From Gemmatimonadota bacterium (GTDB taxonomy: Bacteria; Gemmatimonadota; Gemmatimonadetes; Gemmatimonadales; GWC2-71-9), in assembly GCA_039584015.1 (NCBI GenBank), contig JBDGYO010000001.1, positions 1 to 39,576 on the forward strand: DNA of 39,576 nucleotides. The letters run 5' to 3'. Positions within the stretch are counted from its first letter, which is position 1. The number at the start of each line of letters is the position of its first letter. Positions 25-37,576 of the stretch are shown here, piece by piece. The notes beneath the pieces were generated by a model. The model saw only the letters and a program-made list of their open reading frames with translations. It had not been told where the DNA came from and ran no database searches. The translations under genes and the position numbers were made by a program.

Positions 25-48
25 GGCGCACACAGGAGGCTTACGATC

Positions 49-8852: not shown

Positions 8853-8904
8853 ACACAGGTGGTCGGCTGCCACCGTGGCCGTGTGATCGGCCAGAGGGAA
8901 GTCC

Positions 8905-10158: not shown

Positions 10159-10165
10159 GCTGACA

Positions 10166-13417: not shown

Positions 13418-16096
13418 ATGCTGTTAGAAGCCTTGACGCTCACGCTGCAGGCAGTCACTGCCGTGCAGGGTCAGGTGATATCAGACACGGCCAACGCGCA
13501 GCTTCGCCACCCCGAACGGATTCCGCCGACCATCACTGCAGTCCGCGTCCAAAGGAGCCCCCAGCTAGATGCTCGGCTCGACGACCCCGCGTGGGCGGAC
13601 GCTCACTTCGTGGGCGGCTTCACGCAAGCCCAGCCATTGGATGGTGCACAGCCCACGCAACACACAGAAGTCGGTGTCGTATATGACGGTGGGTCGCTGT
13701 ACATAGGCGCACGGCTCGTTGACTCCGATCCTGGGAGCATCGCTCGCCGCCTCGGACGCCGGGATGCACAGACTTCCAGCGACCAGTTCTGGGTGACCAT
13801 CGACTCCTACCACGATCATCGCACGGCGTCTCACTTCGGGGTGAATCCGGCAGGCGTGAAGATCGACGGTACGTCAGCCAATGACGACAACACGCGCGAT
13901 GACTCATGGGACCCCGTCTGGTCAGTGGCGACAAGTGTGGACTCGATCGGTTGGGTCGTGGAGATGAAGATCCGGTTCTCCCAGCTTCGCTTTTCAGGTG
14001 CCGATGAGCAGATCTGGGGGATCAACTTCTTTCGTCTCATCTTCCGCGAAAACGAGTGGCTCGCCTGGAGTTGGGTGCCAAATGAGGAGCAAGGCTTCGC
14101 GTCGCACTTCGGTCATCTGGTAGGCATTGACGGCGTTTCAGCTCCTCGTGGTCTGGAGCTCCTGCCGTACACGGTGGCCAAGGGTCTCTACACTGAAGGC
14201 GCCGATTCGCTGAACCCCTTCAATGATGGGAGCACATATGACGTTGCGCCAGGACTGGACCTGAAGTACGGGGTGACCAGCGAGCTCACACTCGATGCCA
14301 CTGTCAACCCGGACTTCGGTCAAGTGGAGGCAGACCCTGCAGTCGTCAACCTGTCCGCCTTTGAGACATTCTTCCCTGAACGCCGGCCGTTCTTCGTGGA
14401 AGGAGCCAATATCTTCCAGTTCGGGGCGGGCACTGGCGGGGTGGTCTTCGGTGCTCCACAGCTGTTCTACTCACGGCGGATCGGAGGGAGGCCGTCCGTT
14501 CCCGTCATCGATCGCGACGCCCACTACGTTGACTACCCGATCAACACGCGCATCCTCGCAGCCGCGAAGCTCTCCGGCAAGACACGAGGATGGTCGCTTG
14601 GAGTGATGGATGCGTTGACGGCACGGGAGCACGCCTCGATCCACCGCCAAGACGGCACGCGGGTGAACCAACCAGTAGAGCCGCTTGCCAACTACACGGT
14701 GGTAAGCGTACGACGAGATCTTCGGCAGGGAGCAACCGGCCTTGGGTTCCTCGGCACGAGTGTGCTGCGGGATATCTCCGATTCAGTCTTCCAGGCGATG
14801 CGGTCCTCTGCATGGACCGGTGGAGTGGACTTGTTCCACCGATTTGGCGGCCACCAGTTCGCCATTAATGGGTCCTTTGCTGTCTCCCATATCCGCGGTA
14901 ATCCGATGGCCATGACCGTCGCACAGCGCTCATCGGCTCGCTACTACCAGCGTCCGGACCAGGCCTACGTCTCCGTGGATACTGCAGCAACGAGTCTCAC
15001 CGGATACGGCGGGTCACTCGAAATCGCCAAGACTGCCGGCAACTGGCTGTATGGCGTCAACTCATTCGTCAACTCGCCCGGCTTCGAACTGAACGACGCG
15101 GGGTTTCACCCGATGGTCGACCGGGTGTTCATGGGCGCAAGGCTCCAACGCAGATGGCTAGATCCTGGCAGAGTATTCCGCAACTTCAGTGTCAGCACCA
15201 CGTTCCTTCACCAGTGGAACTTCGGCGGCACACTACTCAGCCGTGGCCCCGAACTGATCTTGAACGGCCAGTTCCACAACTACTGGCAGTTCATGATCGG
15301 GGGCACCTTTCAATTCAAAGCGCAAAGTGACCGGGACACCCGCGGTGGTCCTCTCATGGAGAGTCCACAACTGTGGACGGTGTATGGTTTCGCCAATACC
15401 GACATGCGAAAGCGGTTGGCCATCAGCTTGTTCGGATCCTCTGTAACGAATGTCTACGGTGGTTGGCAGCGCAGCGCCAGCCTCGGAGTGTTTGCTCAAG
15501 CAGGTGACGCAGTATCGTTCTCCGTTCAGCCAGGCTACACGCAGTCGCGTTCCGTCGCGTTCTATGTGACACAGCGTTCTGATGAGAGGGCGGCTGCCAC
15601 GTATGGAGGACGCTATGTCTTCGGTGCGTTGAAACAGCGGATTCTCAACGTCACGATGCGCGCGAACCTCTCCATTACACCGAACCTCTCATTCCAGCTC
15701 TGGGCCCAACCGTTCGTGGCCGTAGGCGACTATGACCAGTTCAAGGAACTGGCCGCTCCTGGCACTTTCGCCTTCCTCCACTATGGCTTGGACGGCGGCT
15801 CTACGATTGCCTTCGACCCGAACACCGACACGTATACTGTGGACCCTGACGGAAGCGGACCCGCCGAGGCGTTTACATTCCACAACCCAGACTTTTGCGT
15901 GCGATCGCTTCGCGCCAACCTCGTGCTACGATGGGAATACCGCCCCGGGTCAGTCCTCTTCCTCGTGTGGAATCATGCCCGATCGGGTTTCTCGAGTGAC
16001 CCGCTCGTGAACGTGTTCGACGAACTCGGTGGATTGTGGCACGACAACCAGCAGAACACGTTCCTGGTGAAGATCAGCTACTGGATCAGTCTGTGA
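13418..16096 (+). CDS. CBM9-like / DUF5916-family secreted or outer-membrane protein
   Basis: AAGGGAG lies 8 nt upstream of the ATG. The N-terminal region 'VQRSPQLDARLDDPAWADA...' resembles carbohydrate-binding family 9-like domains. It is followed by a long beta-rich region typical of DUF5916 proteins. No upstream ATG/GTG exists in frame (TGA at 13352). Confidence 0.65.
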   Translation: MLLEALTLTLQAVTAVQGQVISDTANAQLRHPERIPPTITAVRVQRSPQLDARLDDPAWADAHFVGGFTQAQPLDGAQPTQHTEVGVVYDGGSLYIGARLVDSDPGSIARRLGRRDAQTSSDQFWVTIDSYHDHRTASHFGVNPAGVKIDGTSANDDNTRDDSWDPVWSVATSVDSIGWVVEMKIRFSQLRFSGADEQIWGINFFRLIFRENEWLAWSWVPNEEQGFASHFGHLVGIDGVSAPRGLELLPYTVAKGLYTEGADSLNPFNDGSTYDVAPGLDLKYGVTSELTLDATVNPDFGQVEADPAVVNLSAFETFFPERRPFFVEGANIFQFGAGTGGVVFGAPQLFYSRRIGGRPSVPVIDRDAHYVDYPINTRILAAAKLSGKTRGWSLGVMDALTAREHASIHRQDGTRVNQPVEPLANYTVVSVRRDLRQGATGLGFLGTSVLRDISDSVFQAMRSSAWTGGVDLFHRFGGHQFAINGSFAVSHIRGNPMAMTVAQRSSARYYQRPDQAYVSVDTAATSLTGYGGSLEIAKTAGNWLYGVNSFVNSPGFELNDAGFHPMVDRVFMGARLQRRWLDPGRVFRNFSVSTTFLHQWNFGGTLLSRGPELILNGQFHNYWQFMIGGTFQFKAQSDRDTRGGPLMESPQLWTVYGFANTDMRKRLAISLFGSSVTNVYGGWQRSASLGVFAQAGDAVSFSVQPGYTQSRSVAFYVTQRSDERAAATYGGRYVFGALKQRILNVTMRANLSITPNLSFQLWAQPFVAVGDYDQFKELAAPGTFAFLHYGLDGGSTIAFDPNTDTYTVDPDGSGPAEAFTFHNPDFCVRSLRANLVLRWEYRPGSVLFLVWNHARSGFSSDPLVNVFDELGGLWHDNQQNTFLVKISYWISL

Positions 16097-23693: not shown

Positions 23694-24539
23694 ATGCCGG
23701 GCCGAGACGGTCGATGGTTGGGGAGGCGTACGGTGCCCGTCAGGCATCCATCGATGAGGCAGCATTTCGCGGCGCTCGCGCCGCAGTATCGCGACCTACG
23801 TGACCTGGACATGCGAGCGGTTCGTCGTGTGGCCGGCCTCCTACGGGGTATCGTCGCATCTCAATCCAGCCTCAGCCTGCTCGACGTCGGAACGGGTACC
23901 GGCCGCTACACCCAAGCGGTGCTCCATCAGCTAGCCCGGGACGGCGCCTGGCGTTCACGCGTCGTTGCCGTCGACGCCACACGCGAGATGCTCGGCGCCT
24001 TGGGCGCGCACCTCCCGTTCGAGGTCGTGTCGGTGCAGCGGGTGATCGCCCTCGCGGAAGGCCTCCCGCTCGCGGTCGGCGCGTTTGACGCGCTCCTGTC
24101 GTTCAATGCCGTGCACCACTTCGACCTGCCCGCGTTCCTGCACGAGGCAGCACGCGTCGTGCGCCGGTCGGGCAGGCTGCTCCTCTACACGCGCACCCCG
24201 GAGCAGAATCGCCGCACGGTGTGGGGACGGTTCTTTCCGGACTTCGCCGCACGGGAGACGCGGCTCCATTCCGAAGCGACGCTCCGGGCGGCCGTAGCGG
24301 CCACAGGGTGCTTCCGACCCATCCAGCTCCTCCCGCTGCGGTGGGTGGTCCGGACGAGCCTGGCGCGGCTGCTCGACCAGGCCCGCCTGCGGTTCTATTC
24401 GACGTTTGAGCTCTACACGCCGCGGGAGTTGGCGGCAGCACTCGGTGCGTTCGAGCGCCGCGTACGGGCGCACTACCAAGACCCTGCGGCCATCACCGCC
24501 CGGCACGACCACCTGCTCGTGCACGCGACCCGCCGCTGA
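23694..24539 (+). CDS. Class I SAM-dependent methyltransferase
   Basis: Motif I 'LLDVGTGTGRYT', post-I 'VVAVDATREML', and 'FDALLSFNAVHHF'. The start is uncertain; ATG 23754 is an alternative. Confidence 0.75.
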   Translation: MPGRDGRWLGRRTVPVRHPSMRQHFAALAPQYRDLRDLDMRAVRRVAGLLRGIVASQSSLSLLDVGTGTGRYTQAVLHQLARDGAWRSRVVAVDATREMLGALGAHLPFEVVSVQRVIALAEGLPLAVGAFDALLSFNAVHHFDLPAFLHEAARVVRRSGRLLLYTRTPEQNRRTVWGRFFPDFAARETRLHSEATLRAAVAATGCFRPIQLLPLRWVVRTSLARLLDQARLRFYSTFELYTPRELAAALGAFERRVRAHYQDPAAITARHDHLLVHATRR

Positions 24540-24647
24540 CATTCACCGACCGCCCGGAGGCGCCCTCGCACCACCCACCCCTCCTCTAGCGGCCCCCTCC
24601 ACGGCGCCGTACCATAAGGATTCGCCACCCGGGGGGACGGTGGTGGC

Positions 24648-27479
24648 ATGGACATCACAGCAGGGCTGAGCGTGCTACTCGCCGGGCGGTACGAGCTTGA
24701 GCGGGTACTCGGACACGGCGCGATGGCGGTGGTCTACCTCGCCCGTGACCTGAAGCACGAGCGCCTGGTCGCCATCAAGGTGCTGCGCCCCGAGCTCGCG
24801 GCCTCCCTGGGAGGCGAGCGCTTTCTGCGCGAGATCCAAATTGCCGCCCCGCTGCAACACCCCCACATCCTGCCGCTGTACGACTCCGGCGCCGGCGACG
24901 GCCTGATGTACTACGTCATGCCGTACGTCGAGGGCGAGAGCCTGCGCGACCGGCTGAACCGGGAGGGGCAACTCCCCCTGCCCGACGCGCTGCGCATCTC
25001 GCGTGAGGTGGCGGAGGCCCTCAGCTACGCCCACAGCCACGACGTGATCCACCGCGACATCAAGCCCGAGAACGTGATGATCACGGGCGAGCACGCGGTG
25101 GTGGCCGACTTCGGCATCGCCCGGGCGGTGACGGCAGCCGCGCACCAACCGCTCACCGAGACGGGGCTGGCCATCGGCACGCCGGCGTACATGAGCCCGG
25201 AGCAGGCCACCGGCGCGACCAAGCTGGACGGGCGCTCCGACGTGTACGCCCTGGGCTGTGTGCTGTACGAGATGCTCGTAGGTGAGCCCCCGTTCACCGG
25301 GCCGACGGCGCAGGCGGTCATCGCGCGGCACGTGAGCGAGCACGCCCCCTCGGTGCGGGTGGTGCGGGAGGCGGTGCCGGAGGAGCTGGAGGAGGTGATC
25401 GACAAGACACTCGCCAAGACACCGGCCGACCGCTTTACCAGCGCCACGCAACTCGCCCAGACCATCGGGGCGCTGGAGACAGGCGAGTACAAGCGTGTGC
25501 CCGCCCGCATCAGGCAGCGCCGCCGGGTGGGCATCGTCGGGGTAGCGCTCATCGTAGCCTCAATCGTTGCGCTGCGACTGATCTTCCCTCCCGAGCCGAC
25601 ACTCGAGCGCAACCGCATCGTGGTGTACCCGCTGGTCGTGAGCGGCGAGTACCAGGGAGACCGGGGAGGCGGCGAGCGCGTGGCGCTGGCCGTGGGCTAC
25701 GCCCTGGAGAGTACCGGTCTGTTTCGCTGGACCGACGGATGGAGCCTGCTCGGCGTCGACGCACGGGAGGACGTGCGGACCCTCTCCGAGGACGACGCGC
25801 GCGACCTCGCCCGGGAGCAGGCGGCCGGCTACTTCATCGACGGCCGCGTGGTGCCGCGCGGGGACTCGGTCGACATCATGCTGGCGCTGCACGACGTCGC
25901 CGCCGATTCCGTCGTCCTGTGGAGCAGCGCGGCTGGGGTGCCGGGTGAAGACTGGCACCTCGGCCTTCTCGCGCTCAACGAGCTGCTTCCGGAGATCACG
26001 GGAGAGCGCGTCGGGGTCGGCTGGCTGACTGACCACGCGACCACCGCGGTGGCGCACTTCCTCCAGGGGGAGCAGGAGTACCGCCGCTCGCACTTCGGCC
26101 TCGCACTGGACCACTACGACCGCGCGGTGGCCATCGACTCGACACTCGCGATCGCCGCCCTGCGTGGCGCGCAGGCGGCGAGCTGGATACGCGAGCCCGA
26201 CCGGGCGGAGGCGCTCGTGGCGGTCACGCTGGCCCGAGAGCCAATGCTCCCTGCAGAGCAGATCCTGTTTGCGCGCGGCCTCGAGTCCTACTTCACCGGC
26301 GCAGCCGATACCGCGGTGTGGTACCTGAGGGAGGCGCTGGCCCACGACCCGGAGTGGCGTGACGTGTGGATGGCGCTGGGCGAGGTCTACCACCACTTCT
26401 TGCCCAACGAGTCCCCACTCGATTCCCTCGCCGAAGCTGCGTTCGCAACGGCGCGCCAGCTCGATACCGCGTTTACGCCGCCGCTGTATCACCTGACGGA
26501 GTTCGCCATTCTTGGGGGGGACCTCGAGGCAGCTCGCGACATGCTGGACCGGTTCAGCCGGGAGTCGCCCGATACGTCGCTCACCCAGCAGCTGTTCCTC
26601 ATGTACGACTGCGTGGCCCGCGGGGACGAGGTGGTGGACTGGCAACGCGCCACGCGGGAGACACCGCTCGCTGTGCTGCGAGCGGCCGACGCGCTCGTGG
26701 CTGCGGGCGCGCAGCCCGCCTGTGGGGAGCGCGCCTTCGAGGCGGTGCTGCGGCACGACGGGCCCGACGCGGGGGGCCGACGCTGGGGCGCCATGTACGG
26801 GCTGCAGAGCCTCCTGGTCGCGCAGGGCCGCTACGACGAGGCCGGTCGGCTGCTCGACTCGGCCGCGGCGACCGGCGACGGCACGGTTCCCCCGCTGTAT
26901 GTGCTGGACGCGGCCGCGGGTGCGCCGCTCGAGGCGCAGGCGACGGCATACATCGCCGAGCGGTATGGCCGCCCCGGCGAGATCGCGAGCCCCAACCTCT
27001 GGGTACTGGGGATCTGGCACGCGCACCTCGGGAACGCCGCGGAGCTCGAGGCGGTCGCCGACACCCTTGCCGGGCGCGCGGCCACCACGGACGCTCGCAT
27101 GGATCGGCTCCTGGCCGAGGCCACGGCGGCGCTAGCGGCACTGGCCCGCGCCGATACGGCGGAGGCGCTCGACCGCCTCAAGGCCCTGCGGCCGAGCGCG
27201 CGGAGTGGGCCGCTCGCAGGATTCCCGTGGGAGTCGCTCGGGCCGGAACGAATGGCATTGGCGGAGCTGCTGTTCGCCCGCGGGGAACTCGAACAGGCGG
27301 CGACCGTGGCGGCGAGCTTCGACTCCCCCGCCCCGGTGTCGTATCTGCTGTACCTGCCGGCCAGTCTATCACTGCGACTGCGCGTCGCCGAGGCGCGGGG
27401 CGACGCCGCGGGCGTGGAGGAGTATAGGAAGAGGCTAGTTGCACTAGGGCGGTACGACCTCGCTGGCCTCGTGCCGTGA
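24648..27479 (+). CDS. Membrane Ser/Thr protein kinase with a large extracytoplasmic sensor and TPR-like helical-repeat region
   Basis: Kinase motifs 'GHGAMAVVYLA', 'VAIKVL', 'HRDIKPENV', 'DFG' and 'GTPAYMSPE'. Single TM 'VGIVGVALIVASIVALRLIF'. It is followed by about 630 aa with an alpha/beta N-terminal part and Ala/Leu-rich helical repeats. Confidence 0.85.
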   Translation: MDITAGLSVLLAGRYELERVLGHGAMAVVYLARDLKHERLVAIKVLRPELAASLGGERFLREIQIAAPLQHPHILPLYDSGAGDGLMYYVMPYVEGESLRDRLNREGQLPLPDALRISREVAEALSYAHSHDVIHRDIKPENVMITGEHAVVADFGIARAVTAAAHQPLTETGLAIGTPAYMSPEQATGATKLDGRSDVYALGCVLYEMLVGEPPFTGPTAQAVIARHVSEHAPSVRVVREAVPEELEEVIDKTLAKTPADRFTSATQLAQTIGALETGEYKRVPARIRQRRRVGIVGVALIVASIVALRLIFPPEPTLERNRIVVYPLVVSGEYQGDRGGGERVALAVGYALESTGLFRWTDGWSLLGVDAREDVRTLSEDDARDLAREQAAGYFIDGRVVPRGDSVDIMLALHDVAADSVVLWSSAAGVPGEDWHLGLLALNELLPEITGERVGVGWLTDHATTAVAHFLQGEQEYRRSHFGLALDHYDRAVAIDSTLAIAALRGAQAASWIREPDRAEALVAVTLAREPMLPAEQILFARGLESYFTGAADTAVWYLREALAHDPEWRDVWMALGEVYHHFLPNESPLDSLAEAAFATARQLDTAFTPPLYHLTEFAILGGDLEAARDMLDRFSRESPDTSLTQQLFLMYDCVARGDEVVDWQRATRETPLAVLRAADALVAAGAQPACGERAFEAVLRHDGPDAGGRRWGAMYGLQSLLVAQGRYDEAGRLLDSAAATGDGTVPPLYVLDAAAGAPLEAQATAYIAERYGRPGEIASPNLWVLGIWHAHLGNAAELEAVADTLAGRAATTDARMDRLLAEATAALAALARADTAEALDRLKALRPSARSGPLAGFPWESLGPERMALAELLFARGELEQAATVAASFDSPAPVSYLLYLPASLSLRLRVAEARGDAAGVEEYRKRLVALGRYDLAGLVP

Positions 27480-27507
27480 TGCAGGTTCTCATGCGTGGAG
27501 GTGTGCC

Positions 27508-27756
27508 ATGTCAGTCGCAACCGCTGGGAAGTACAGGCTGAAGAACAGGCAGGCAAAGGTGAACCTCACCGGGAAGCCCTCGGCCCCGGTGACGCTGACC
27601 GAAGAGATGGTGGCACCACTCATCGAGTGGGCGGAGAAGATGGTCGACTGGGGTAAGGGCGTGCGGGCGGACATCATTCGGCTCGAAGGAAGCGCTGGAT
27701 TCGCGTTTGGCGATCCAGAGGACCCGCCCACGCCGCCGCCGTGGGGAGGGAAGTAA
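27508..27756 (+). CDS. Small hypothetical protein (82 aa) with Pro-rich tail
   Basis: GGAGG lies 7 nt upstream of the ATG. Third-position GC is mostly high. The gene starts 28 nt after the preceding kinase gene. The tail reads 'GDPEDPPTPPPWGGK'. No family was recognised. Confidence 0.5.
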   Translation: MSVATAGKYRLKNRQAKVNLTGKPSAPVTLTEEMVAPLIEWAEKMVDWGKGVRADIIRLEGSAGFAFGDPEDPPTPPPWGGK

Positions 27757-27867
27757 TCGGTCGGTGATACAGGTGCGGTGCTAGTGACGTTGCCGTAGCG
27801 CGCCGCCGCTTGACGATGGCTTGACGCCCTCCCGGCATCGTGCACCCGTCCAAATGGGGAGCGCACG

Positions 27868-28956
27868 ATGCCGAGGGCCTGGTGGCAGAGCCGAGCCAAA
27901 CGACGCGGGTCGCGCCCTCCAAGGCTCTCGCGCCCCAGTCTCGGGGTGAGCGCCGGGCAGCTGCGGTCGGCCGCACTGCGGCGGCACCGGCTGATGGAGG
28001 GGGCCGACGTCGGCGCCTATCGCCTGGGGCCACTCATCGGTTGCGGCGGGATGGGGGAGGTCTATCACGCGACCCACCGCCTGCTGGGTCGTTCGGCGGC
28101 CGTCAAGCTCATCCGGCCCGAGGTGCTGATCGAGGCCGACGACGACGACGTGTTCCTGACCTTGCGCCGCTTCCGTCGCGAGGCCAGGTCCGGCGCGACC
28201 CTGCGCTCACCCCACGCCGTCAGCCTGTTCGATTTCGGCGTGACCGACCGCGGCACGTTCTACATCGTGATGGAGCTGCTCGAGGGTCTGAACCTCGCGC
28301 AGCTGGTCACACGGTTCGGGCCCGTCCCCGCGGAGCGCACCGTCCACATCCTGTACCAGGTGAGTGCCGCGCTCGGCGAGATGCACGCGCACGGCCTGGT
28401 GCACCGCGACGTCAAGCCCGAGAACGTGCATCTCATCCCTCGGGACCAGCACCATGACTTCGTGAAGCTGACGGACCTCGGACTGGTGAAGCCCGAGCGC
28501 GGAACCACGACCGAGCACCGGCTGGTTCGGGCACGGGGCTGCATCCTCGGGACACCGGCCTTCATGGCGCCCGAGACGGCCAGGGGTGACCCGGGCGACG
28601 AACGCACCGACATCTACGCCCTGGGGTGCGTGGCCTACTGGCTCCTCACCGGCTGCACGGTGTTCGACGCCGACGATGTGCAGGGCCTGATGCGCAGCCA
28701 CATCGACATGGATCCAACGCCGCCCTCGCAGCGCACCGAGCTCGAGCTGCCTGCATCACTGGAGCGCCTCATCCTCTGGTGCCTGTCCAAGCACCCCGAG
28801 ATGCGACCGCAGAGCGCCAAAGAGTTTTCCACCCGCCTGGCTGCCTGCAAGCTGACGCGGACCTGGACCGCAGAGCAGGCCGAACGGTGGTGGGACGCGC
28901 ACCTCCCCACGGGAGAGGTGGCGATGGTGGCGGGGTCGGGGCCGAGGTCGGCGTAG
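27868..28956 (+). CDS. Soluble Ser/Thr protein kinase (kinase domain plus short tails)
   Basis: GGGAG lies 7 nt upstream of ATG 27868. The Arg-rich 42-aa leader has high third-position GC by hand count. Motifs are 'GCGGMGEVYHA', 'AAVKLI', 'HRDVKPENV', 'DLG' in place of DFG, and 'GTPAFMAPE'. No TM segment. ATG 27994 is an alternative start. Confidence 0.8.
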   Translation: MPRAWWQSRAKRRGSRPPRLSRPSLGVSAGQLRSAALRRHRLMEGADVGAYRLGPLIGCGGMGEVYHATHRLLGRSAAVKLIRPEVLIEADDDDVFLTLRRFRREARSGATLRSPHAVSLFDFGVTDRGTFYIVMELLEGLNLAQLVTRFGPVPAERTVHILYQVSAALGEMHAHGLVHRDVKPENVHLIPRDQHHDFVKLTDLGLVKPERGTTTEHRLVRARGCILGTPAFMAPETARGDPGDERTDIYALGCVAYWLLTGCTVFDADDVQGLMRSHIDMDPTPPSQRTELELPASLERLILWCLSKHPEMRPQSAKEFSTRLAACKLTRTWTAEQAERWWDAHLPTGEVAMVAGSGPRSA

Positions 28957-29120
28957 GGGAAGGACGACTCGCCACTCGGATGTGTAATCCGCAGGTCCAG
29001 TCGCCTACCTATTCTCCTAGTGATCAGTTGGGATCCCGTGCGATGCCGACGATGGGACGCACCCCAGCTAGCCGATACTGCCTTGCGCACCCCGCAAGCA
29101 GAGGACCACAGGATCCGCAG

Positions 29121-30185
29121 CTACCTTTCCCTTCGTCTGACTACTCGAGGCCTCTCATTACTGAGCCCGAGTTCATCGATCTTCGTCTGCAAGGCAAGGG
29201 CTTCGTTGTGGTTCAGGTTCGTTCCGAACACGACCACGTATCGCACGCGTGCCGGCGTCGCCGGATCAGGTACCTCATACACCCTCGCTGCAGCCGGATC
29301 GTTGAGCGCCACGATATACTCATGAGCCTTACGAGCCGCGTCCTCTGCGTTCCCGTACTCCTCCCCAGCGACGTACCACGCGCGGGGATCCGAGCGTCCC
29401 AGGAACCCTCGAAAGAACTGCTGAACCCTCGACTCCGGCGGCGGTTCCGTCTCTTCGACACTCCCACTGACGATGATCTGCTCCACGCTAAGCGCGGCCT
29501 GCTCCAAGGGTACCCGTACCTCTGCCGTCCGACCCGCAGCAACCTCAACCGCGACCTCTCCGTATGAGAAGCCCAGCAGCGAAACCAGCAGCGTGTGCCC
29601 TCCCGCTGGCAGATTGAGCTCAAACGCGCCGTTCTCCGCGGTTAGGGTGCCGATGTCCGTTCCGCTCACACGGACGTGAGCGCCGACGAGCGGCTCGCCC
29701 GTCTCACCGTCCACGACCTGGCCTCGTACCGAGCCCACAGCCACTTGCTGCCGTACGGCCTCCGGCACTGGTTGTGCATGTGCCTCGCTCATCACGATCT
29801 CAGCCATAGATTCCAGCCCAGCGATCGGTCCGCCCCCGGGCCCTCCAACTTTCAGTCCGTTCGATACGCTGAGGATCATGGCCGGGGCCACAATACCCAA
29901 TTCAAAGACCCGCAACCGTTGGCTTTCCTGCTTGTGCAGCCACGCCCAGAGGCCCCCAATGGCGAACAGCAATACCACTTTGACGACCAGCCCGAGGGCG
30001 GCGAACAGCGTCATGTGCGCGAGGACCGGCTCAAGATCTACGACGATGAGGCTGAGCGCCGTCGGGACGACGGCCCCAATACCACCCAGAGCGAACTTCG
30101 GCAGCCCTGGCATCGCTGCCGCGCTCGGCTGCGCCTGACCCTGCTGCTGCACCTCGCGCTCCTGCGGTTGTGTCGGTCCGTTCAT
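29121..30185 (-). CDS. Membrane protein with CarboxypepD_reg-like domain and a SPOR-like C-terminal domain
   Basis: GGGAG lies 6 nt upstream of the ATG. About three N-terminal TM helices. 'GQVVDGETGEPLVGAHVRVSGTDIGTLTAENGAFELNLPAGGHTLLVSLLGFS' matches the carboxypeptidase-regulatory-like fold. The C-terminal 'RVRYVVVFGTNLNHNEALALQTKIDELGL' is SPOR-like (tentative). Confidence 0.65.
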   Translation of the reverse strand: MNGPTQPQEREVQQQGQAQPSAAAMPGLPKFALGGIGAVVPTALSLIVVDLEPVLAHMTLFAALGLVVKVVLLFAIGGLWAWLHKQESQRLRVFELGIVAPAMILSVSNGLKVGGPGGGPIAGLESMAEIVMSEAHAQPVPEAVRQQVAVGSVRGQVVDGETGEPLVGAHVRVSGTDIGTLTAENGAFELNLPAGGHTLLVSLLGFSYGEVAVEVAAGRTAEVRVPLEQAALSVEQIIVSGSVEETEPPPESRVQQFFRGFLGRSDPRAWYVAGEEYGNAEDAARKAHEYIVALNDPAAARVYEVPDPATPARVRYVVVFGTNLNHNEALALQTKIDELGLSNERPRVVRRRER

Positions 30186-30252
30186 GGCTTACTCCCTGTA
30201 ATGCCTACTTGGCACACTGAGTTCGGGCTGGCGCGCCGCCGCCACCTCGCGG

Positions 30253-32406
30253 CTAGTCGCATCTAATCCGCACTCTGGGTGGCCCCTCCCAACGGAGCAG
30301 CGTCAAGCTGAACTGATCCCCAGGCTTGATACCGTCAGGCGGGGTCCACCGCGCTTCCCAGAGATAGCCTTTCCTTCGCATACCGCGTCCACGTACCTCG
30401 GTATCGATGTCACCGTCGTCTGCACGCACTCCATCACGCTCTCGTGCGAACTCCAGGACCGGTCCACTCGCGGGGACCATGCTGCCGGCCGGTGCATCAA
30501 ACCAGCGGACGATCACAGTATCCCCACGACAGATGGGCCGACCGTCGATCCGGAGGCGGTCGGGTCGCGGTCCCGAGTCGGGCCAGTGCGACTCCGGGTC
30601 GCCGGGCCGAACGAGGATGCTGTCCACCTGGGCCCGCGATCCAGAGTCACTGGTGTCCGACGACAGGCTCGCCGTGAGCGCTCGCAAGCGCTCGGCGATC
30701 ACCACGGCGGTCTGGGGGCCGTAGAGATTGGAGCCACCTTCATACAGTTGAGCTCCGTATTCTTCCGGTGTGGTGATGTATCGGAGGTCGCCGTTGGCGA
30801 GGCCGAGGATCGTGAGATTCTCGGCGGGGACGCCGTCGGGGCGCTCGGCCTGCATCACGGCCAGCATGCGCAGCCCAGCCTCAGTCGTGACTTCACCGGG
30901 CACGGTTCCGATCAATACGTCTCCTACCCGCACCACGGCAAACTGGGCGTACTCCGAGAAGGCAAAACTGCCGAACATGCGCGACTGCGGCAGGAATGTG
31001 CTGCGCTTCGGCCCCTGGCAGTCGGTACGCGAGGAATCAATGCCGGAGCCGCCAGGGTCGAGCCCGAGGGGGATCAGCCCGAACAGCTTGAATCCGGCAA
31101 AGCGCGTCAGACCATCCGGCCCACCCGCTACCGCAGCGGTTCCGGTCTCGCCGCTCTCGCACAGTCCAGCCTCGCGCGCCTCGTCGGTGGTGAGATCAAC
31201 CGTCTCGTATGCCCGCGCGATGGAGACGTCGGGCGCCAGTTCGGACTCGAGGTTCTCGTAGATCTGCCCCGCTCTGCCGGCCAGCGCTGCACCCACGTCC
31301 TCCACATAGGCCTTCGCTGCCGAGACGCACGCCGCCAGGTGCTCCGGCGCATCGTGCCAGTCGTCTTTGGGTGCTGGCGTGCGCGGCCCGCCGGGCCGCC
31401 GCGTCGGCCGGATTGTCGGCGGGTCACAGCGCGTCTCGAAAGGCCAATTGGGCGAGACATCCCCCTGGGTGCCGTTGGCGAAGAGGTGGATGCCACCGAG
31501 ACGACTCTCGAGCGTGCGGGCCACGACCCCGTGGATGTCCGCATCGTACACGTTGCTTCCCGACGGGAAGCCGGTTCCGTGGATCGCGAAGATGCTGAGC
31601 GTTCCAGCTGGACGGAAGGCACCTGCAGAGTCCCGGACGTCCACACGGAGCATCGCCCAGCGTGGGTTCACCTTGCAGAGCGAGTCATTTCCTGAGAAGG
31701 GACACGGCGGAAGCGGGAAGGCGGGAACGCCGCCGTTCAGGGCGTACGCCTGCAGGCTCCGGTTTCTGGTGTGTCCCCACACCGTGTCGATGGCCCAGGC
31801 CGCCTTGGCAGGACGGCGCCCGTTGTACGCGGTGATCACGGCGTCCGCGATTCCATCGGTCAGCCAATCCACGAACTCTGGGTCGTAGCCCGCCACGCCG
31901 GAACCGAAATCATTGAGCGTCCAGGCAGACAGGTAATGTCCCGGTCCCGAGTGCGTGTGCGTCGCCGACAGGATGAGCCGGTCCGCGCCAATCGCCGAGT
32001 CCGTGGCCTCAAACACCTGCTGGGCGACCCGGCGGTGTACGAGCGTGGACATGACGCCCAAATCCACCACGGCGAAGGCGATCCGCTGGCCGTCCCCATC
32101 CTCCAGGACCAGCGCCCTCACCTGGAGGCGGGTCCGGTATCCAACCGCCCGCTTGCCCTCGGGACCGTACCCGAAGAGACCGAACCCGGGGGGCGGCGTG
32201 ATGTCGACGAGGTCGAACCCGGCCAGCAGCACTCCCTCGCCCTCCGTGGCGGGCTCCGATGCCGGCGTGGGCAACTCGAACTTCTCTGGGAGGGTGCACG
32301 CGGGGACCGCCAGAAGGCTCGCGAGCAGCACAGCGCATATCCAGGACGCCGCCCTGTCGCGCCGTGTCCGAAACATGTGCTCAGTAGTGCGCCACATGGT
32401 ATCCAT
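30253..32406 (-). CDS. Neutral/alkaline ceramidase-family lipoprotein
   Basis: Hallmark 'LSATHTHSGPGHY' and 'NGTQGDVSPNW' motifs of neutral ceramidases. Signal with lipobox-like 'LLAVPAC'. The start could also be ATG 32397 or 32376. Confidence 0.8.
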   Translation of the reverse strand: MDTMWRTTEHMFRTRRDRAASWICAVLLASLLAVPACTLPEKFELPTPASEPATEGEGVLLAGFDLVDITPPPGFGLFGYGPEGKRAVGYRTRLQVRALVLEDGDGQRIAFAVVDLGVMSTLVHRRVAQQVFEATDSAIGADRLILSATHTHSGPGHYLSAWTLNDFGSGVAGYDPEFVDWLTDGIADAVITAYNGRRPAKAAWAIDTVWGHTRNRSLQAYALNGGVPAFPLPPCPFSGNDSLCKVNPRWAMLRVDVRDSAGAFRPAGTLSIFAIHGTGFPSGSNVYDADIHGVVARTLESRLGGIHLFANGTQGDVSPNWPFETRCDPPTIRPTRRPGGPRTPAPKDDWHDAPEHLAACVSAAKAYVEDVGAALAGRAGQIYENLESELAPDVSIARAYETVDLTTDEAREAGLCESGETGTAAVAGGPDGLTRFAGFKLFGLIPLGLDPGGSGIDSSRTDCQGPKRSTFLPQSRMFGSFAFSEYAQFAVVRVGDVLIGTVPGEVTTEAGLRMLAVMQAERPDGVPAENLTILGLANGDLRYITTPEEYGAQLYEGGSNLYGPQTAVVIAERLRALTASLSSDTSDSGSRAQVDSILVRPGDPESHWPDSGPRPDRLRIDGRPICRGDTVIVRWFDAPAGSMVPASGPVLEFARERDGVRADDGDIDTEVRGRGMRRKGYLWEARWTPPDGIKPGDQFSLTLLRWEGPPRVRIRCD

Positions 32407-32415
32407 CCGGCCGAA

Positions 32416-33255
32416 TCACCAGAACCAGCTCAGAGCGATGTTAAACAGCAGCCACTTCGTCCCCCGATCCTGATCCTCGAGCGCGCGGCTCGTTCGTTTC
32501 GTGGCCTCGTCGACGTTGATCAGTAGGTGCACGTCGGGCGTGATATAGAGATCGCGCACTGGCCCGATGGGCGCATAGACTTGCGTCCTTGCGAAGATGT
32601 CCACGTGCGTCACACCGTCCTCCGCGAAATAGCCCCCCTCTTCGGGGTCCGCAGTATTCACTGCCTGGCCGGCGCTGACCCCCGCGAGTGCCCCGAGGTA
32701 CAGGGACGGTACGGCAAGAGGCAGAACCGGGATCCGGTAAGTCGCGCTCAGCTCGAAGTAGGCGCCCTTCACCTCTTCCAGATCGAGCCAGACGGCGACC
32801 CTCGGCGTGAATCCTCCGATGCGCACCTGACCATTGGCGTAGAACTCACCAGTGTTGAAGACGGTGCTGCCCACGGCCGCTGCGGCTGCCTCGTCGAAGA
32901 AGTAGCGAGTGTAGCCGAGCGAGAGATCGAACGGGCCCGCCCACGTGGCGAACTCGGCCCAGAGATCCCACTGGCCGAAGTGCTGGCCGAGTCCGATATC
33001 GGTTGACGCTGGATCGGCCACGGAGAACTCGAAGTTGGTCCAGCCACCGACCGTGAGGAAGCTGCCTGAGAACCGAGCCCCGGTCACGAGATCTGCCTGG
33101 AGCACCCAGTCGTTTCGGCGGGTGATGCCGCGCCAGTAGTACCTCGAAGCGACGGTAGCGTCGGCGGCACCGGTCCAGCGCGCTTGGCCGGCGAGCGGGG
33201 GCGATACCCCGAACCCAAGCAGCGTGGCGAGGACTAGCAGGGCGAAGCAGCGCAT
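32416..33255 (-). CDS. TorF/Gcw_chp-family putative outer-membrane porin
   Basis: Signal 'MRCFALLVLATLLGFGV'. 'ASRYYWRGITRRNDWVLQADL' resembles the family hallmark Y.(F/W)RG...Q. Alternating beta-strand pattern ending '...NIALSWFW'. Start 33255 was chosen because it lies after the upstream stop at 33270. Confidence 0.55.
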   Translation of the reverse strand: MRCFALLVLATLLGFGVSPPLAGQARWTGAADATVASRYYWRGITRRNDWVLQADLVTGARFSGSFLTVGGWTNFEFSVADPASTDIGLGQHFGQWDLWAEFATWAGPFDLSLGYTRYFFDEAAAAAVGSTVFNTGEFYANGQVRIGGFTPRVAVWLDLEEVKGAYFELSATYRIPVLPLAVPSLYLGALAGVSAGQAVNTADPEEGGYFAEDGVTHVDIFARTQVYAPIGPVRDLYITPDVHLLINVDEATKRTSRALEDQDRGTKWLLFNIALSWFW

Positions 33256-33269
33256 CAATCGGATTGCCT

Positions 33270-34343
33270 CTACGCCCCGTGCTCGCGCCACCCCAACTGG
33301 TAGATGCGCAGATCATCCCCTACCACCACCGCGAGGTGTGCGTTCTCAAGCCACGGATCCGACTTGCCCAAGCGGCAGTGCCCGATCCATGCTCCGGCGT
33401 CCAGCAGCGTGAAGGGAACGCCGTCCTCGTGTTTCCCCGCCACGATACGCGGCCAATGCGTGTGTCCGATCACCACCAACCTGATGTCGTAGCCGCCGTG
33501 GTCGCGTAGCGCGTACGCAATCTCGCGCGCCTCCCTGAAGAACCGCTTGTTATTCGCCTTCGGCGACCCTTGGTGCGCATCGATGACATTCACGTTGTCC
33601 GGCCCACCTGGCGAGCCGCCCGCCACTGCAAGCTCAGCCTGTCCGACGCCAATGGGCTGGTCACCATCCGGTATGGCACGGTTCGCCGACGCTACAGTGG
33701 CATCATCGTTGTACAGCTCATGGCCGCCGGAGCTATGCCAAGTTGCGAACCGCACCGCTGCAGCCTGGAGTGCATCCGGGAGTAGCCGCTCTAGCCGGCT
33801 GAACAGATCTCCGTGCAGCACGAGCACATCACCGCCCGCCGAGCCCTGGTTCTCGATGATCCGAAACCGGGCGGCGCGCCATCCCGACATGCGGAACAGG
33901 CCGTAATCGTGATTGCCCGCGATGATTCTCGCCTTGACGCCACCCGGCACGCCGTAGGTCAGCAACTCCAGAATGTCCGCATGGTCGGCCGCGATCCTCC
34001 GAAGCTCTGCTTGCTCATCTTGCCCGCCCCGAGCTCTCCAGAGGTCGAACAGATCACCAAGCTGCCACACTCTCAGCTGTCTGCGGTGGTTCTTCTTGAG
34101 CTCCCTCAGGGACTCCAGACACAGCAAGAGATCGTCGTCCTGGACGAAGCCCCACTTCGGATACGCCGGCGCGTCCCGCCGGCTCAACAGGTGACAATCC
34201 GGAATGAACAGGTGAACCCGTCCTCCGGGGAGTTGCAGTCCCGCTTCGTCGTACCGTGCCACCAACGACACGGGCTCCTTGCCGGGGTATCGCTCGCCAA
34301 ACGCGTCGCCCAGATACGACACTATCGTGTCATGGTCCAGCAT
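33270..34343 (-). CDS. Calcineurin-like metallophosphoesterase with LpxH-like motif order
   Basis: All metal-binding motifs are present: 'IPDCH', 'LGDLFDLW', 'AGNHDY', 'LHGD' and 'IGHTHWP'. They are followed by 'LLDAGAWIG', which parallels LpxH 'VLGAW'. No signal peptide. Confidence 0.8.
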   Translation of the reverse strand: MLDHDTIVSYLGDAFGERYPGKEPVSLVARYDEAGLQLPGGRVHLFIPDCHLLSRRDAPAYPKWGFVQDDDLLLCLESLRELKKNHRRQLRVWQLGDLFDLWRARGGQDEQAELRRIAADHADILELLTYGVPGGVKARIIAGNHDYGLFRMSGWRAARFRIIENQGSAGGDVLVLHGDLFSRLERLLPDALQAAAVRFATWHSSGGHELYNDDATVASANRAIPDGDQPIGVGQAELAVAGGSPGGPDNVNVIDAHQGSPKANNKRFFREAREIAYALRDHGGYDIRLVVIGHTHWPRIVAGKHEDGVPFTLLDAGAWIGHCRLGKSDPWLENAHLAVVVGDDLRIYQLGWREHGA

Positions 34344-34363
34344 GGTCGGACTCCTCGACGTTG

Positions 34364-34927
34364 TCAGTTCGGCTCCGGGTCACATATCGAGTCGGCCTTG
34401 AACACGTCCAGACGATCGATTGGACCACCTTCCGCGGGCGCGTGGAGCAGGACCCAGGCTCGGTCGATCCGCACTGCGACACACGCACCATCCTCGCTCC
34501 TCCATTGTCGGCAGCCGAACGTGCGGCGCGCATCGTCCACTTCGAGCGTCCACACGGTCAGGGGTAGCACCGTCCGCATCAACGAATCGACCGTGAAGGG
34601 AGAAGCAAGCTCCACATCGCTCATCGCGGCGTAGGCCGGCGCGACGGCGTCTCGGATCTCGGTCTCCGTGCGCGCAGAGCAGATTGTGGGCTCCCCGTCC
34701 AGATCGGCGCACTCGTCCGGCTCGTCTGATCGCAAGAGACAGACGGTTCCCTCAAGCGCAGCTTGCCAGTCAGCCGACCGATCCTCACCTAGCCCAAGCG
34801 GGAACTCCAGACGCCTTGTCGCCTCGGGCACTGGAGCACTCGCCACAGGCTGCTCCCGGACGCACGCAATGCCCAAGACTCCCAACGTGAGTGCTGCGGC
34901 AGCACTCAAGATCCTGATGGCTTGCAT
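34364..34927 (-). CDS. Cys-rich lipoprotein, unknown function
   Basis: GAGGAGG lies upstream of ATG 34927. Lipobox 'LGIAC'. Six further Cys residues. No family was recognised. Confidence 0.55.
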   Translation of the reverse strand: MQAIRILSAAAALTLGVLGIACVREQPVASAPVPEATRRLEFPLGLGEDRSADWQAALEGTVCLLRSDEPDECADLDGEPTICSARTETEIRDAVAPAYAAMSDVELASPFTVDSLMRTVLPLTVWTLEVDDARRTFGCRQWRSEDGACVAVRIDRAWVLLHAPAEGGPIDRLDVFKADSICDPEPN

Positions 34928-34956
34928 TCTGACCTCCTCGACCGAGCTGTGACGCG

Positions 34957-35484
34957 TCACCGGCTTCGTCCGTCCACGTTCTTGAACGAGTACACCGCGG
35001 TCACCTGGAGTTGAGTCCTGCTCCTAATGGCGACGAATCCCTCGAGTAGTGAATCGCGCAAGGACTGGGGGTCGCGCGTCAGGTGCCGGAAGATCTCCGC
35101 GCAGGCTACGTAGAATCCCTGGTACGCGTGCAGGGTGTCGTCGACGAACTCGCCGCGTGCCCCTCGCCGAGCGAACTGGCTCCTGATGGGCACGGCGCCC
35201 TTTTCGAACACCACCGTCATGGGTTCCGGGTTGTAGACGTTGATGGATGTGAGGTAGGTCCCGGGCACGAGCACTGCGTTCGTGTCGCGTGACGCATCGG
35301 GGAACTCCGGCGATCCAGGCTCCGCTGCGATCGTACCGCACAGGAACTTGGCCGAATACGAATACGCCTCGCCATCGTGGATCGGCACCGCCGGCACCGT
35401 CTCCACATCGACACTGCCCCCCACGCCCAAGCCCTCGCAGGCCGCCAGCGCGACCAGCGGCAACACCCCGAGTAGCGGTCTCAT
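34957..35484 (-). CDS. Lipoprotein, unknown function
   Basis: GGAGG lies upstream of ATG 35484. Lipobox 'LAAC'. Conserved-looking 'YSAKFLCGT...VPGTYLTSINVYNP' core. First gene of the - strand operon. Confidence 0.55.
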   Translation of the reverse strand: MRPLLGVLPLVALAACEGLGVGGSVDVETVPAVPIHDGEAYSYSAKFLCGTIAAEPGSPEFPDASRDTNAVLVPGTYLTSINVYNPEPMTVVFEKGAVPIRSQFARRGARGEFVDDTLHAYQGFYVACAEIFRHLTRDPQSLRDSLLEGFVAIRSRTQLQVTAVYSFKNVDGRSR

Positions 35485-35843
35485 TGTCTGCCTCCATGTG
35501 CGATGGGCGCAGGAAGTGGCGCATGACCTGACTGGCGGGCAATCCGGGTAGCGGCGGTGGTGGTCGTCGGGTAGGCGTCCGTGGAGGGCGTCGGTACGGC
35601 GGCACAACCACCTGGCCGGAACTCTGTCTGGGCCTGGCAGTCGGGTTTCCTCGAGGCTCCAAGCTGTGACTCAGCCCGCCACTTGACTAGGCCAGTATTG
35701 GGGCACGACATGCCGAATGTGGGACATCCGCCGTCACGTGCTCAACGAACGGCCGATCAGATCAATCTCAGGCCTAATCCCGACAGATTCGTTCCACGCT
35801 CGCCCCGTATGCCGGCGCTTTGGCCCGCCAATGTCGCAGATGC

Positions 35844-35856
35844 GGCATGTCATGCC
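35844..35856. promoter_or_regulatory. Perfect 13-bp palindrome GGCATG-T-CATGCC in a 628-bp divergent intergenic region
   Basis: Read directly. Related half-sites are GACATGCC (35707-35714) and TATGCCGG (35808-35815). Confidence 0.3.
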
Positions 35857-36112
35857 CCAAAAGAGGCCTAGTTCCAGCAAGTCACCGCGCCAATAATGGA
35901 GCCCTCGCGCCAGACTTGGTGGTTACGCCCGGAAAAGGGCGCCCCGCGCCCGACGCCTCGTACAGCCTCCGTCCGCCAGGCCGACGCCCAGGAGCCGATT
36001 CGTCCGCACCAGGGGTGCCACGAGCGTCGTATCGCTCTGGCAGTCCTCGGCATTCCTGCGGGTTCCGACAACCGACTACCACGTGCGTCACACCGTTGCA
36101 AGGAGGTGTTTC

Positions 36113-37576
36113 ATGAAACGGAGAGTGAGAAAGGCGGGGCTACTGCCCGGCCCGCTGAAGGAGCCCACTACGCCAGACTACGTAGTGGTCGAACTACGGC
36201 ACGACAGTCAGATCGCCTATTCGGAACAAGGTTTCGCGGCACCCGCAGCATTGGAGCCGGAAGTCAGCGGACTCAATCGCGTCCTCGAGGGCTACCGCAC
36301 CAAAGCGGTGAGCTCGCACTTCGGCGTCCCCGCGCGTCAGGTCCGGCGGCGCGTGGCCGACGCCCCCTCATCGTTGAGGGTCCCGGTTGACGGGGACTTC
36401 GCCCACGCGGGATTCGTCCAAGTGGTACCGCGGGACCCCGGGGACGCCGCCGCCCTCGCACGCCGTCTGAACCGCAATCCGCGGGTATGGAAGGCGTTCG
36501 TCGCACCCCGCCCGGTTCCAGCCGGCCTAGCCTTCGGCACCAGGGTGGGAAGTCGGAGCTTCGAAGCGACTCAGGGCTACCTTGCGTCTCCACCGAACGG
36601 TATCGGTGCCATGCAGGTTTGGTCCCAGCGGGGCGCCCGCGGCGAACGGGTACGAATCTGCGACATCGAGGGCAACTGGAATCTGCGGCACGAGGACCTG
36701 CCGCGTGGCCTCCGGCGCCTGGGTGGCACCCCGATCAACGACCTCGGCTGGCGCAACCACGGGACGGCAGTTCTCGGCGAGATGATCAGTCGTCCCGGTG
36801 ACGTGGGTACCGTAGGCATCTCGCATCGCGCCCAGGGGAACGTGCACTCTGCGATCATTGGCGGTGTATGGAACACCGGAGGTGCGATACGGAACGCGGC
36901 TCGCCAACTCCGAAGCGGCGACGTCATCCTCATCGAGCTACAGGGAACCGGACCTAGGGGACGTTACGTCGCGATGCAGTACTGGGATGACGTGTTCTCC
37001 GCAATTCGGTACGCCACCGCAAAGGGAGTGACCGTGGTGGAAGCTGCGGGCAACGGTAACGAGAACTTCGACCTGAGAACCTACCAGGGAACGGGCCTAC
37101 AGAAAGATTCGGGTGCAATCGTCGTCGGCGCCGGAGTGCCCCCGACCAACTGGCACGACTACCAGGGGCGGAACCCCTTTGGAGGCGGCGATCCCGCCAC
37201 TCGCTACAAACACATTGGAGTACCACGGTCGCGCATCTGGTTCTCCAACTACGGGCGAATCGTCAACGTGCAAGCGTGGGGTTGGCACGTGACGACCCTG
37301 GGCTACGGTGACGCGCAGGGAGGTAGAAGCGAGAACCGGTGGTACACTTTGCACTTCTCCGGTACCTCCAGTGCTTCACCGATCGTGACGGGGGCGGTAG
37401 CTTGCATTCAGGGGCGGGCGAAGGCCGTGAGGGGCCGTCCACTGGAGCCCAAACAGGTTCGGCGCCTCCTCATGCGCACCGGGACGCCCCAGGAACCGGG
37501 ACCTAGGGTCCCACTGAGGCAGCGAATCGGTCCTCAGCCCAACCTGCCGCGCGCGATGCGCGGAATCAGGAGATAG
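36113..37576 (+). CDS. S8-family (subtilisin-like) serine peptidase with N-terminal pro-region and no signal peptide
   Basis: AGGAGG (36101-36106) lies 6 nt upstream of ATG 36113. Catalytic motifs are 'CDIEGNW' (Asp), 'NHGTAVLGEM' (His), 'EAAGNGNE' (oxyanion Asn) and 'FSGTSSASPIVTG' (Ser). Confidence 0.85.
   Translation: MKRRVRKAGLLPGPLKEPTTPDYVVVELRHDSQIAYSEQGFAAPAALEPEVSGLNRVLEGYRTKAVSSHFGVPARQVRRRVADAPSSLRVPVDGDFAHAGFVQVVPRDPGDAAALARRLNRNPRVWKAFVAPRPVPAGLAFGTRVGSRSFEATQGYLASPPNGIGAMQVWSQRGARGERVRICDIEGNWNLRHEDLPRGLRRLGGTPINDLGWRNHGTAVLGEMISRPGDVGTVGISHRAQGNVHSAIIGGVWNTGGAIRNAARQLRSGDVILIELQGTGPRGRYVAMQYWDDVFSAIRYATAKGVTVVEAAGNGNENFDLRTYQGTGLQKDSGAIVVGAGVPPTNWHDYQGRNPFGGGDPATRYKHIGVPRSRIWFSNYGRIVNVQAWGWHVTTLGYGDAQGGRSENRWYTLHFSGTSSASPIVTGAVACIQGRAKAVRGRPLEPKQVRRLLMRTGTPQEPGPRVPLRQRIGPQPNLPRAMRGIRR

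Follow-up and report, generated by a model that had tools for sequence, protein, structure and literature searches.

A candidate composite cluster for envelope lipid hydrolysis in a Gemmatimonadota bacterium, drawn from two separately conserved gene pairs

A 39,576-nt stretch of DNA from a soil-type (environmental) Gemmatimonadota bacterium, hereafter the window, carries six minus-strand genes at positions 29121-35484. They encode two predicted lipoproteins (lipo1 and lipo2), a metallophosphoesterase (mpe), an outer-membrane beta-barrel (barrel), a homologue of neutral ceramidases (ceramidase, or cer) and a membrane protein with a CarboxypepD_reg domain (cpd). On balance, we lean towards reading this locus as a composite cluster for lipid hydrolysis in the cell envelope, consisting of two separately conserved pairs, barrel-ceramidase and lipo2-mpe, and two passengers. 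A preliminary description of the sequence had proposed that all six genes form one envelope module for uptake, head-group removal and deacylation of sphingolipid-like or lipid-A-like lipids. Retention of every catalytic residue in the ceramidase homologue, the LpxH-like character of the phosphoesterase and the synteny of barrel and ceramidase all agree with an envelope module, although the six genes are not one conserved unit. With each gene start placed at the first plausible ATG of its open reading frame (ORF), the features of the locus are as follows.

lipo1: 34957-35484, minus strand; ORF with start, a 175-aa predicted lipoprotein with signal MRPLLGVLPLVALAAC
lipo2: 34364-34927, minus strand; 187-aa lipoprotein, lipobox LGIAC
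mpe: 33270-34343, minus strand; 357-aa leaderless metallophosphoesterase of the LpxH superfamily
barrel: 32416-33255, minus strand; 279-aa outer-membrane beta-barrel with a Sec signal peptide
ceramidase (cer): 30253-32406, minus strand; 717-aa neutral/alkaline ceramidase-family Zn-amidase, predicted lipoprotein (C37)
cpd: 29121-30185, minus strand; 354-aa membrane protein with a CarboxypepD_reg domain, preceded by a 67-nt gap
divergent intergenic region: 35485-36082, no strand; 598 nt, ORF-free, likely the promoter region of the cluster

The six genes are collinear with gaps of exactly 29, 20, 14, 9 and 67 nt, as first described. That description also assigned each gene its own Shine-Dalgarno-like motif, and GGAGG- or GAGG-like motifs do precede lipo1, lipo2, mpe, barrel and cpd, but the one before the ceramidase ATG is weak. 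Export signals, claimed for four of the six products, are present in five: lipobox cysteines in lipo1 (LAAC), lipo2 (GIAC) and the ceramidase (C37), a Sec signal on the barrel and hydrophobic helices in cpd, leaving mpe as the sole leaderless product. The lipobox expected of bacterial lipoproteins is thus found in lipo1, lipo2 and the ceramidase, and in homologues of lipo2 as well. Inside the cluster, no terminator-like site or hairpin was found on the coding strand, and the tight packing suggests co-transcription of what has the layout of a single transcription unit. The 598-nt intergenic region also serves a divergent subtilase gene at 36083-37576; it contains no match to the sigma-70 consensus, the coding strand gave no promoter consensus match, and no Rfam family was detected in the window, this region included. 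At the downstream boundary lies a convergent Ser/Thr kinase gene. Searches with hidden Markov models (HMMs) returned the anticipated Pfam families Ceramidase_alk (179.5 bits) and Metallophos (34.9 bits, on mpe) together with CarbopepD_reg_2 (68.3 bits); no Pfam family matched lipo1, lipo2 or barrel.

The ceramidase homologue belongs to the first of the two pairs. Its match to PF04734 spans residues 62-567 and far exceeds the gathering cut-off of 32.1 bits, and alignment to the human neutral ceramidase (4WGK) and the Pseudomonas aeruginosa enzyme (2ZWS) revealed that HTHSGP, NRS, H276, GDVSPN, E505, Y543 and Y555 are kept. The zinc and catalytic set, namely H150, H152, R216, H276, G315-D316-V-S-P-N, E505 (the Glu of PGExTT), Y543 and Y555, is invariant or at least 90% conserved among 33 homologues. 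Bacterial neutral ceramidases are known mainly as enzymes that pathogens secrete against host sphingolipids. The subfamily described here can be assigned to the lipoproteins, because C37, at the end of the signal peptide, is kept in at least 90% of the same 33 homologues and more distant members carry textbook lipoboxes (LAGC, WGC or MGC). It extends across Gemmatimonadota with lengths of ~700-730 residues and PF04734 as its only domain, whereas the distant canonical enzymes combine PF04734 with PF17048. A search of reference genomes with the single ceramidase sequence returned nothing, and an alignment-based search then gave 80 genome loci. These ceramidase-seeded loci were compared along with ten contigs bearing closer homologues and 80 mpe-seeded metagenome loci, each cited below by its L number where needed.

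In all 22 Gemmatimonadota genome loci with upstream DNA, the gene just before the ceramidase is barrel, and the same is true of L085-L093. On this synteny, barrel accompanies the Gemmatimonadota ceramidases as an obligate upstream neighbour, and the two are the core pair of the locus. No barrel was found beside ceramidases of other phyla. A 187-aa lipoprotein encoded between mpe and ceramidase in L108 was considered as a barrel homologue and rejected (hhalign probability 0.8%). The AlphaFold2 (AF2) model of the window protein, built from a 17-sequence alignment, has about 12-13 strands with a predicted local distance difference test score (pLDDT) of 87.9 and a predicted template modelling score (pTM) of 0.81. 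Foldseek returned 282 matches at E<=1e-3, and almost all of the 50 listed are outer-membrane barrels. The best of these are generic (OmpG, FapF and LpxR, each at a template modelling score, TM, of about 0.5) and a profile search against the PDB returned nothing, so that no specific analogue, whether LpxR, PagL, FadL or Slam, can be claimed.

The barrel had originally been described as a TorF-type porin. An outer-membrane barrel fold with a signal peptide stands, but the label appears to hold only as a remote relationship to Gcw_chp/TorF (PF09694) and not as membership, since the window protein has no PF09694 match at E<=1 and only 3 of 17 family members match, the best at E 8.2e-7. Gcw_chp/TorF proteins are outer-membrane proteins of unknown function that share the signal peptide and a beta-barrel of about 250-280 aa; the clade in the window differs from them in its strict linkage to ceramidase and in invariant polar residues of its own. 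Many of the 37 invariant columns in the barrel alignment are polar, among them D32, R42, R46, Q53, E76, E137, D158, E168, H217, H243, N247, D249 and R254, which appears to be more polar invariance than we would expect of a non-specific pore.

The second pair comprises mpe and lipo2. The phosphoesterase gene has 12 in-frame codons before its ATG, its product is conserved from residue 1, and the missing signal peptide is a family-wide trait. Across 38 family members D49, H51, D97, N144, H145, D146, H177, H294 and H296 are invariant, and all five metal/catalytic blocks of metallophosphoesterases are present, block 3 reading G143-N144-H145-D146. Foldseek searches with the AF2 model (pLDDT 87.5, pTM 0.90) placed LpxH in the top 9 positions, followed by SMPDL3A/B, Lmo2642 and Rv0805. 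Similarly, LpxH was the sole significant relative of the family profile in the PDB (E 2.9e-4), with GDLFxxW and GHTHxP...GAW as common signatures. The phosphoesterase is therefore LpxH-like, as originally described.

The scores and the third block of mpe argue that it is not the housekeeping LpxH, an outcome that would have undone the original proposal. Against the LpxH equivalog TIGR01854 mpe scores 20.8 bits with a cut-off of 190.35, and against NF003743 it scores 20.2 bits with a cut-off of 134. A His-to-Arg change in block 3 (GNRD) is specific to LpxH (PMC3087551), and mpe carries GNHD instead. Because of both features, the label 'LpxH' given to this family by the Joint Genome Institute (JGI) is an over-annotation. 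Relative to the UDP-2,3-diacylglucosamine pyrophosphatases LpxH/LpxH2 (COG2908), mpe has the same calcineurin-like fold, five blocks, signatures, lack of a signal peptide and helical insertion between blocks IV and V, but it is about 110 residues longer and has other genomic partners. No lpx domain was detected among the window ORFs scanned or in the annotated neighbourhoods. The acid sphingomyelinase and SMPDL3A/B calcineurin-fold phosphodiesterases are second-tier structural matches (Foldseek E 5e-5 to 3e-4) with no profile match. Unlike them, mpe is not exported and has neither saposin nor C-terminal subdomains, so it shows neither the profile relationship nor the export of an acid-sphingomyelinase-like enzyme.

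The small lipoprotein lipo2 has six conserved cysteines and an invariant DARR motif, and its disulfide pattern argues for a location outside the cytoplasm. In L092 and at least 14 metagenome loci the gene directly before mpe encodes a homologue, with a lipobox cysteine in all, and lipo2-mpe is on this distribution a second conserved and widespread pair. Ahead of more distant mpe genes, the same position is taken by a small lipoprotein of another sequence type, 165-200 aa long. The positional analogues in L137, L143 and L029 were not detected by the lipo2 HMM, and any homology to lipo2 would depend on a common D(A/S)R motif alone. The mismatch of compartments that had been raised earlier as a caveat is real and holds throughout the family, pairing a leaderless phosphoesterase with an exported Cys-rich lipoprotein.

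The two pairs occur together repeatedly. The full lipo2-mpe-barrel-ceramidase block is kept in L092/L093 at 64-68% identity, with gaps of 11, -1 and 8 nt. Neighbouring metallophosphoesterases were found by HMM and jackhmmer searches; a motif regular expression was overly stringent and overlooked neighbours with Pfam matches. Of the 80 mpe-seeded metagenome loci, 13 have a ceramidase-family gene no more than 1 kb from mpe, as do 4 of the 13 mpe loci that have at least 2.5 kb on both sides. At least six arrangements were seen (upstream, downstream, convergent and divergent, or with a lipoprotein between), adjacency also occurs in the Planctomycetota genome L029, and it spans mpe identities of 30-65% and ceramidase identities of 25-68%. 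All of the ceramidases near mpe are lipoproteins. The link between ceramidase and phosphoesterase accordingly recurs in several phyla and in many gene orders. What is conserved of the gene set as first proposed amounts to two pairs, or four genes, and the six genes are not a conserved set.

Loci without mpe often have another metallophosphoesterase in its stead. In L090/L091, the closest barrel-ceramidase relatives, a different metallophosphoesterase stands in place of mpe. The gene for this 523-526-aa lipoprotein, and after it one for a ~90-aa protein, come downstream of the ceramidase in L084-L086 but ahead of the barrel in L090/L091, at the positions below.

L084, 2475-4327: 523-526-aa metallophosphoesterase and ~90-aa protein
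L085, 12336-13916: the same two genes
L086, 5813-7674: the same two genes
L090, 4-1139: the same two genes
L091, 1-716: the same two genes

Its PDB matches are weak (GpdQ, Rv0805 and acid sphingomyelinase). The conserved ~90-aa protein, of unknown function, always follows it, and a homologue of the metallophosphoesterase was also noted 3 kb from a ceramidase in the Verrucomicrobia genome L040. Two further metallophosphoesterase types occur in L001, and patatin-like phospholipases occur in L001, L092 and L168. Downstream of the barrel-ceramidase pair, L087 (13480-20253; also L088 and L089) encodes a patatin-Omp85 fusion (PlpD-like), a metallo-beta-lactamase-fold protein and an LCAT/PGAP1-type lipase.

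Other mpe subgroups have other partners. A GMC oxidoreductase gene directly precedes mpe in 16 loci; in a subgroup of ~380 aa (L116, L118, L119, L122, L123, L131, L132 and others; L163, L165, L172) it often does so with a 4-nt gap. In L165 and L172 an LCAT-type lipase gene stands between GMC oxidoreductase and mpe. With ceramidases, GMC oxidoreductases or LCAT-type and patatin lipases as its neighbours, the mpe family consistently sits beside lipid enzymes, and the GMC-mpe arrangement looks like a second lipid-related module around the same phosphoesterase family.

The remaining two genes, lipo1 and cpd, have no homologues beside ceramidase or mpe in about 170 related loci, and both are best regarded as probable lineage-specific passengers and not as members of the module. 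The lipo1 product consists of an unnamed extracytoplasmic domain of about 150 aa with no match in Pfam or NCBIfam. This domain is represented by 362 clusters, either stand-alone or as a C-terminal or internal part of large SpaA, CARDB, DUF11 or NHL surface proteins, with no lipid connection. The cpd product has three N-terminal hydrophobic helices, the CarbopepD_reg_2 domain at residues 153-239 and a C-terminal domain of no assigned type. By eye, the C-terminal ~100 aa of cpd (window 29121-29430) look SPOR-like, with a beta-alpha-beta-beta-alpha-beta pattern and the stretch ...RYVVVFGTNLNHNEALALQTKIDELGL..., and gave no Pfam match at E<=0.1.

As selection retains both pairs side by side across several phyla, a single class of substrate is probable for them, and a trans-envelope lipid-hydrolysis module is the most likely arrangement suggested by the gene content. 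From domain identities and synteny we infer a scheme of cellular locations, barrel role, reaction order and substrate. At the periplasmic or outer-membrane face, the lipid-anchored Zn-amidase would act on a ceramide-like amphiphile and cut its N-acyl amide bond, while the barrel would serve as a conduit or docking partner for the hydrophobic substrate or products. On the inner-membrane side, lipo2 and mpe would process a phosphate- or pyrophosphate-linked lipid or head-group intermediate. A sphingolipid-type lipid, exogenous or endogenous, is the favoured substrate and the simplest reading of the amidase. Uptake through a porin and removal of a head group, which the preliminary description proposed along with a sphingolipid-like substrate, are likewise inferences. 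The substrate may also be lipid-A-like or another aminolipid, given the affinity of mpe to LpxH, its predicted cytoplasmic location and the polar conservation of the barrel.

Several observations weigh against a four-gene module acting on sphingolipids. The ceramidase homologue has no match to the C-terminal domain PF17048 at E<=0.1, its C-terminal ~150 aa not being canonical, and it scores 112.1 bits against the NCBIfam equivalog NF041649, whose cut-off is 1200. Because of the missing domain and the low equivalog score, its substrate may not be ceramide. The invariant polar residues of the barrel could likewise mean that passive transport is not its function. Of the informative mpe loci, only about a quarter to a third include a ceramidase, and no metallophosphoesterase could be detected beside most barrel-ceramidase pairs of Gemmatimonadota. 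Since mpe is leaderless and the ceramidase, barrel and lipo2 are exported, the enzymes are unlikely to act one directly after the other in a single compartment. Finally, the window ORFs scanned included no gene for making sphingolipids or for breaking down sphingosine, and a literature search found no report of sphingolipids in Gemmatimonadota.

In a first alternative, in our view rather unlikely, the module remodels or recycles the cell's own lipid-A-like or other aminolipids and does not break down sphingolipids. The amidase would then take amide-linked acyl chains off glucosamine- or amino-acid-based outer-membrane lipids, the barrel would present or deacylate the lipid, and mpe would handle a nucleotide- or pyrophosphate-linked intermediate at the cytoplasmic face. 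Consistent with this, mpe has LpxH as its sole significant relative in the PDB, with GDLFxxW and GHTHxP...GAW in common, the leaderless mpe suits the cytoplasmic-face location of LpxH, and the lack of sphingolipid genes among the window ORFs scanned points the same way. The many invariant polar residues of the barrel would also be at home here, as would LpxR, a lipid A deacylase barrel, among its equal-best matches, although that match is no better than those to OmpG or FapF (TM about 0.5). Against it, the amidase has the pocket residues of true ceramidases, the window and the neighbouring loci showed no lpx genes, and we know of no bacterial enzyme of the ceramidase family that acts on lipid A. 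A more specific form of this idea is still harder to credit: the ceramidase-like lipoprotein would be an outer-membrane amidase that, with the barrel, N-deacylates the cell's own lipid A or another aminolipid, and mpe and lipo2 would recycle a phosphorylated amino-sugar or lipid intermediate. If true, such N-deacylation would amount to a previously unknown trans-envelope salvage pathway for lipid A or aminolipids.

A second alternative, to which we assign a similarly small chance, dispenses with a common pathway and treats the locus as neighbouring envelope genes whose adjacency reflects shared ancestry or the clustering of genes for exported proteins. The lack of conservation of lipo1 and cpd fits this explanation, as do the many barrel-ceramidase loci without mpe and mpe loci without ceramidase, which are the majority in each case, and the phylogenetic non-independence of the loci. 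What it accommodates poorly is adjacency that persists over mpe identities of 30-65% and ceramidase identities of 25-68%, in at least six orders or orientations and in Planctomycetota as well. Non-orthologous metallophosphoesterases, moreover, substitute at the same place, and the chance of finding two low-copy families within 1 kb of each other is ~0.1% per genome.

A housekeeping role for mpe, as a divergent LpxH/LpxG-type UDP-2,3-diacylglucosamine hydrolase that merely sits beside the ceramidase, is improbable. Chlamydial LpxG, a GNHD-type metallophosphoesterase of about 37 kDa, can perform the LpxH reaction (PMC4807358) and so provides a precedent that joins the JGI label and the standing of LpxH as closest solved relative in favour of this role. 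The score of 20.8 bits against 190.35 and the GNHD block in place of the LpxH-specific GNRD (PMC3087551) speak against it, and mpe does not have the N-terminal transmembrane helix of LpxG. Its conserved partners, furthermore, are a lipoprotein and a ceramidase, GMC oxidoreductase or lipase, never lpx genes, and mpe is absent from the neighbourhood in most relatives.

Least probable of all is that mpe is a toxin delivered to competitors, lipo2 its immunity protein and the ceramidase unrelated: periplasm-acting effectors and their immunity proteins are typically encoded as a leaderless hydrolase next to a small, exported lipoprotein rich in disulfides, a layout that lipo2-mpe fits with a signal peptide missing throughout the mpe family, but no secretion-system, VgrG, PAAR or Rhs genes occur in the window or the annotated loci, the pair is single-copy and conserved over deep divergence, and its association with ceramidase, GMC oxidoreductase and lipases would be left unaccounted for.

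The closest functional precedent for the favoured lipid-hydrolysis cluster is in P. aeruginosa, where the sphingomyelinase PlcH, then the ceramidase CerN, cooperate with the predicted porin SphA, and where cerN and sphA belong to the SphR regulon (PMC3900636). Both systems combine an enzyme of the neutral-ceramidase family, with the same catalytic residues, a phosphodiester-cleaving enzyme and a dedicated outer-membrane barrel. The window differs in having a lipoprotein ceramidase that lacks the canonical C-terminal domain and a Gcw_chp-like rather than SphA-like barrel within the same predicted operon, and a leaderless LpxH-type mpe takes the position of the secreted PlcH-type phospholipase C. 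The P. aeruginosa regulon includes SphBCD, whereas the window has no homologues of SphR or SphBCD, and its host is an environmental bacterium and not an animal pathogen. Nor were an AraC regulator, a cytochrome c or an aldolase-type gene, the marks of an SphR-regulon-type module, found among the window ORFs scanned.

In agreement with the claim that no operon of this composition had been described, a literature search found no ceramidase-metallophosphoesterase operon. The enzyme classes are known. What appears to be undescribed, as far as these comparisons extend, is the ceramidase subfamily of lipoproteins, the obligate barrel beside it, the pairing of mpe with a lipoprotein and the repeated linkage among them. 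The analysis defines a large environmental ceramidase subfamily in Gemmatimonadota, Acidobacteriota-like lineages and Planctomycetota that is lipid-anchored and without the canonical C-terminal domain. It also provides a first contextual clue for a widespread mpe family annotated 'LpxH', in the form of a small lipoprotein partner and lipid-enzyme neighbours. If the four genes act together, they would give soil bacteria a new way of turning over amide-linked membrane lipids, and they would offer a handle on the function of Gcw_chp/TorF barrels and LpxH2-like phosphoesterases.

Elsewhere in the window, the plus strand carries two Ser/Thr kinase genes (24648-28956) that converge on the cluster from just beyond its downstream end. 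In L004, L008, L009 and L026 (Gemmatimonadota) the ceramidase likewise has a convergent kinase gene right beside it, which may be conserved synteny or kinase paralogy; because of that paralogy the signal is ambiguous. The G+C content is 0.69-0.72 in the kinase region (24000-29000) and 0.59-0.66 in most of the rest. A 1211-aa protein encoded at 5217-10912 on the plus strand is unusual in joining a Ser/Thr kinase domain, at its N-terminus, to a MacB-type permease (MacB_PCD and FtsX, twice), and genes for an HlyD-family protein and an ABC ATPase come after it. Positions 1-3957 and 13418-16096 encode a SusD-like lipoprotein, a PQQ/BamB-like beta-propeller protein and a DUF5916 protein, genes typical of envelope nutrient-acquisition loci in the FCB group (Fibrobacterota, Chlorobiota and Bacteroidota).

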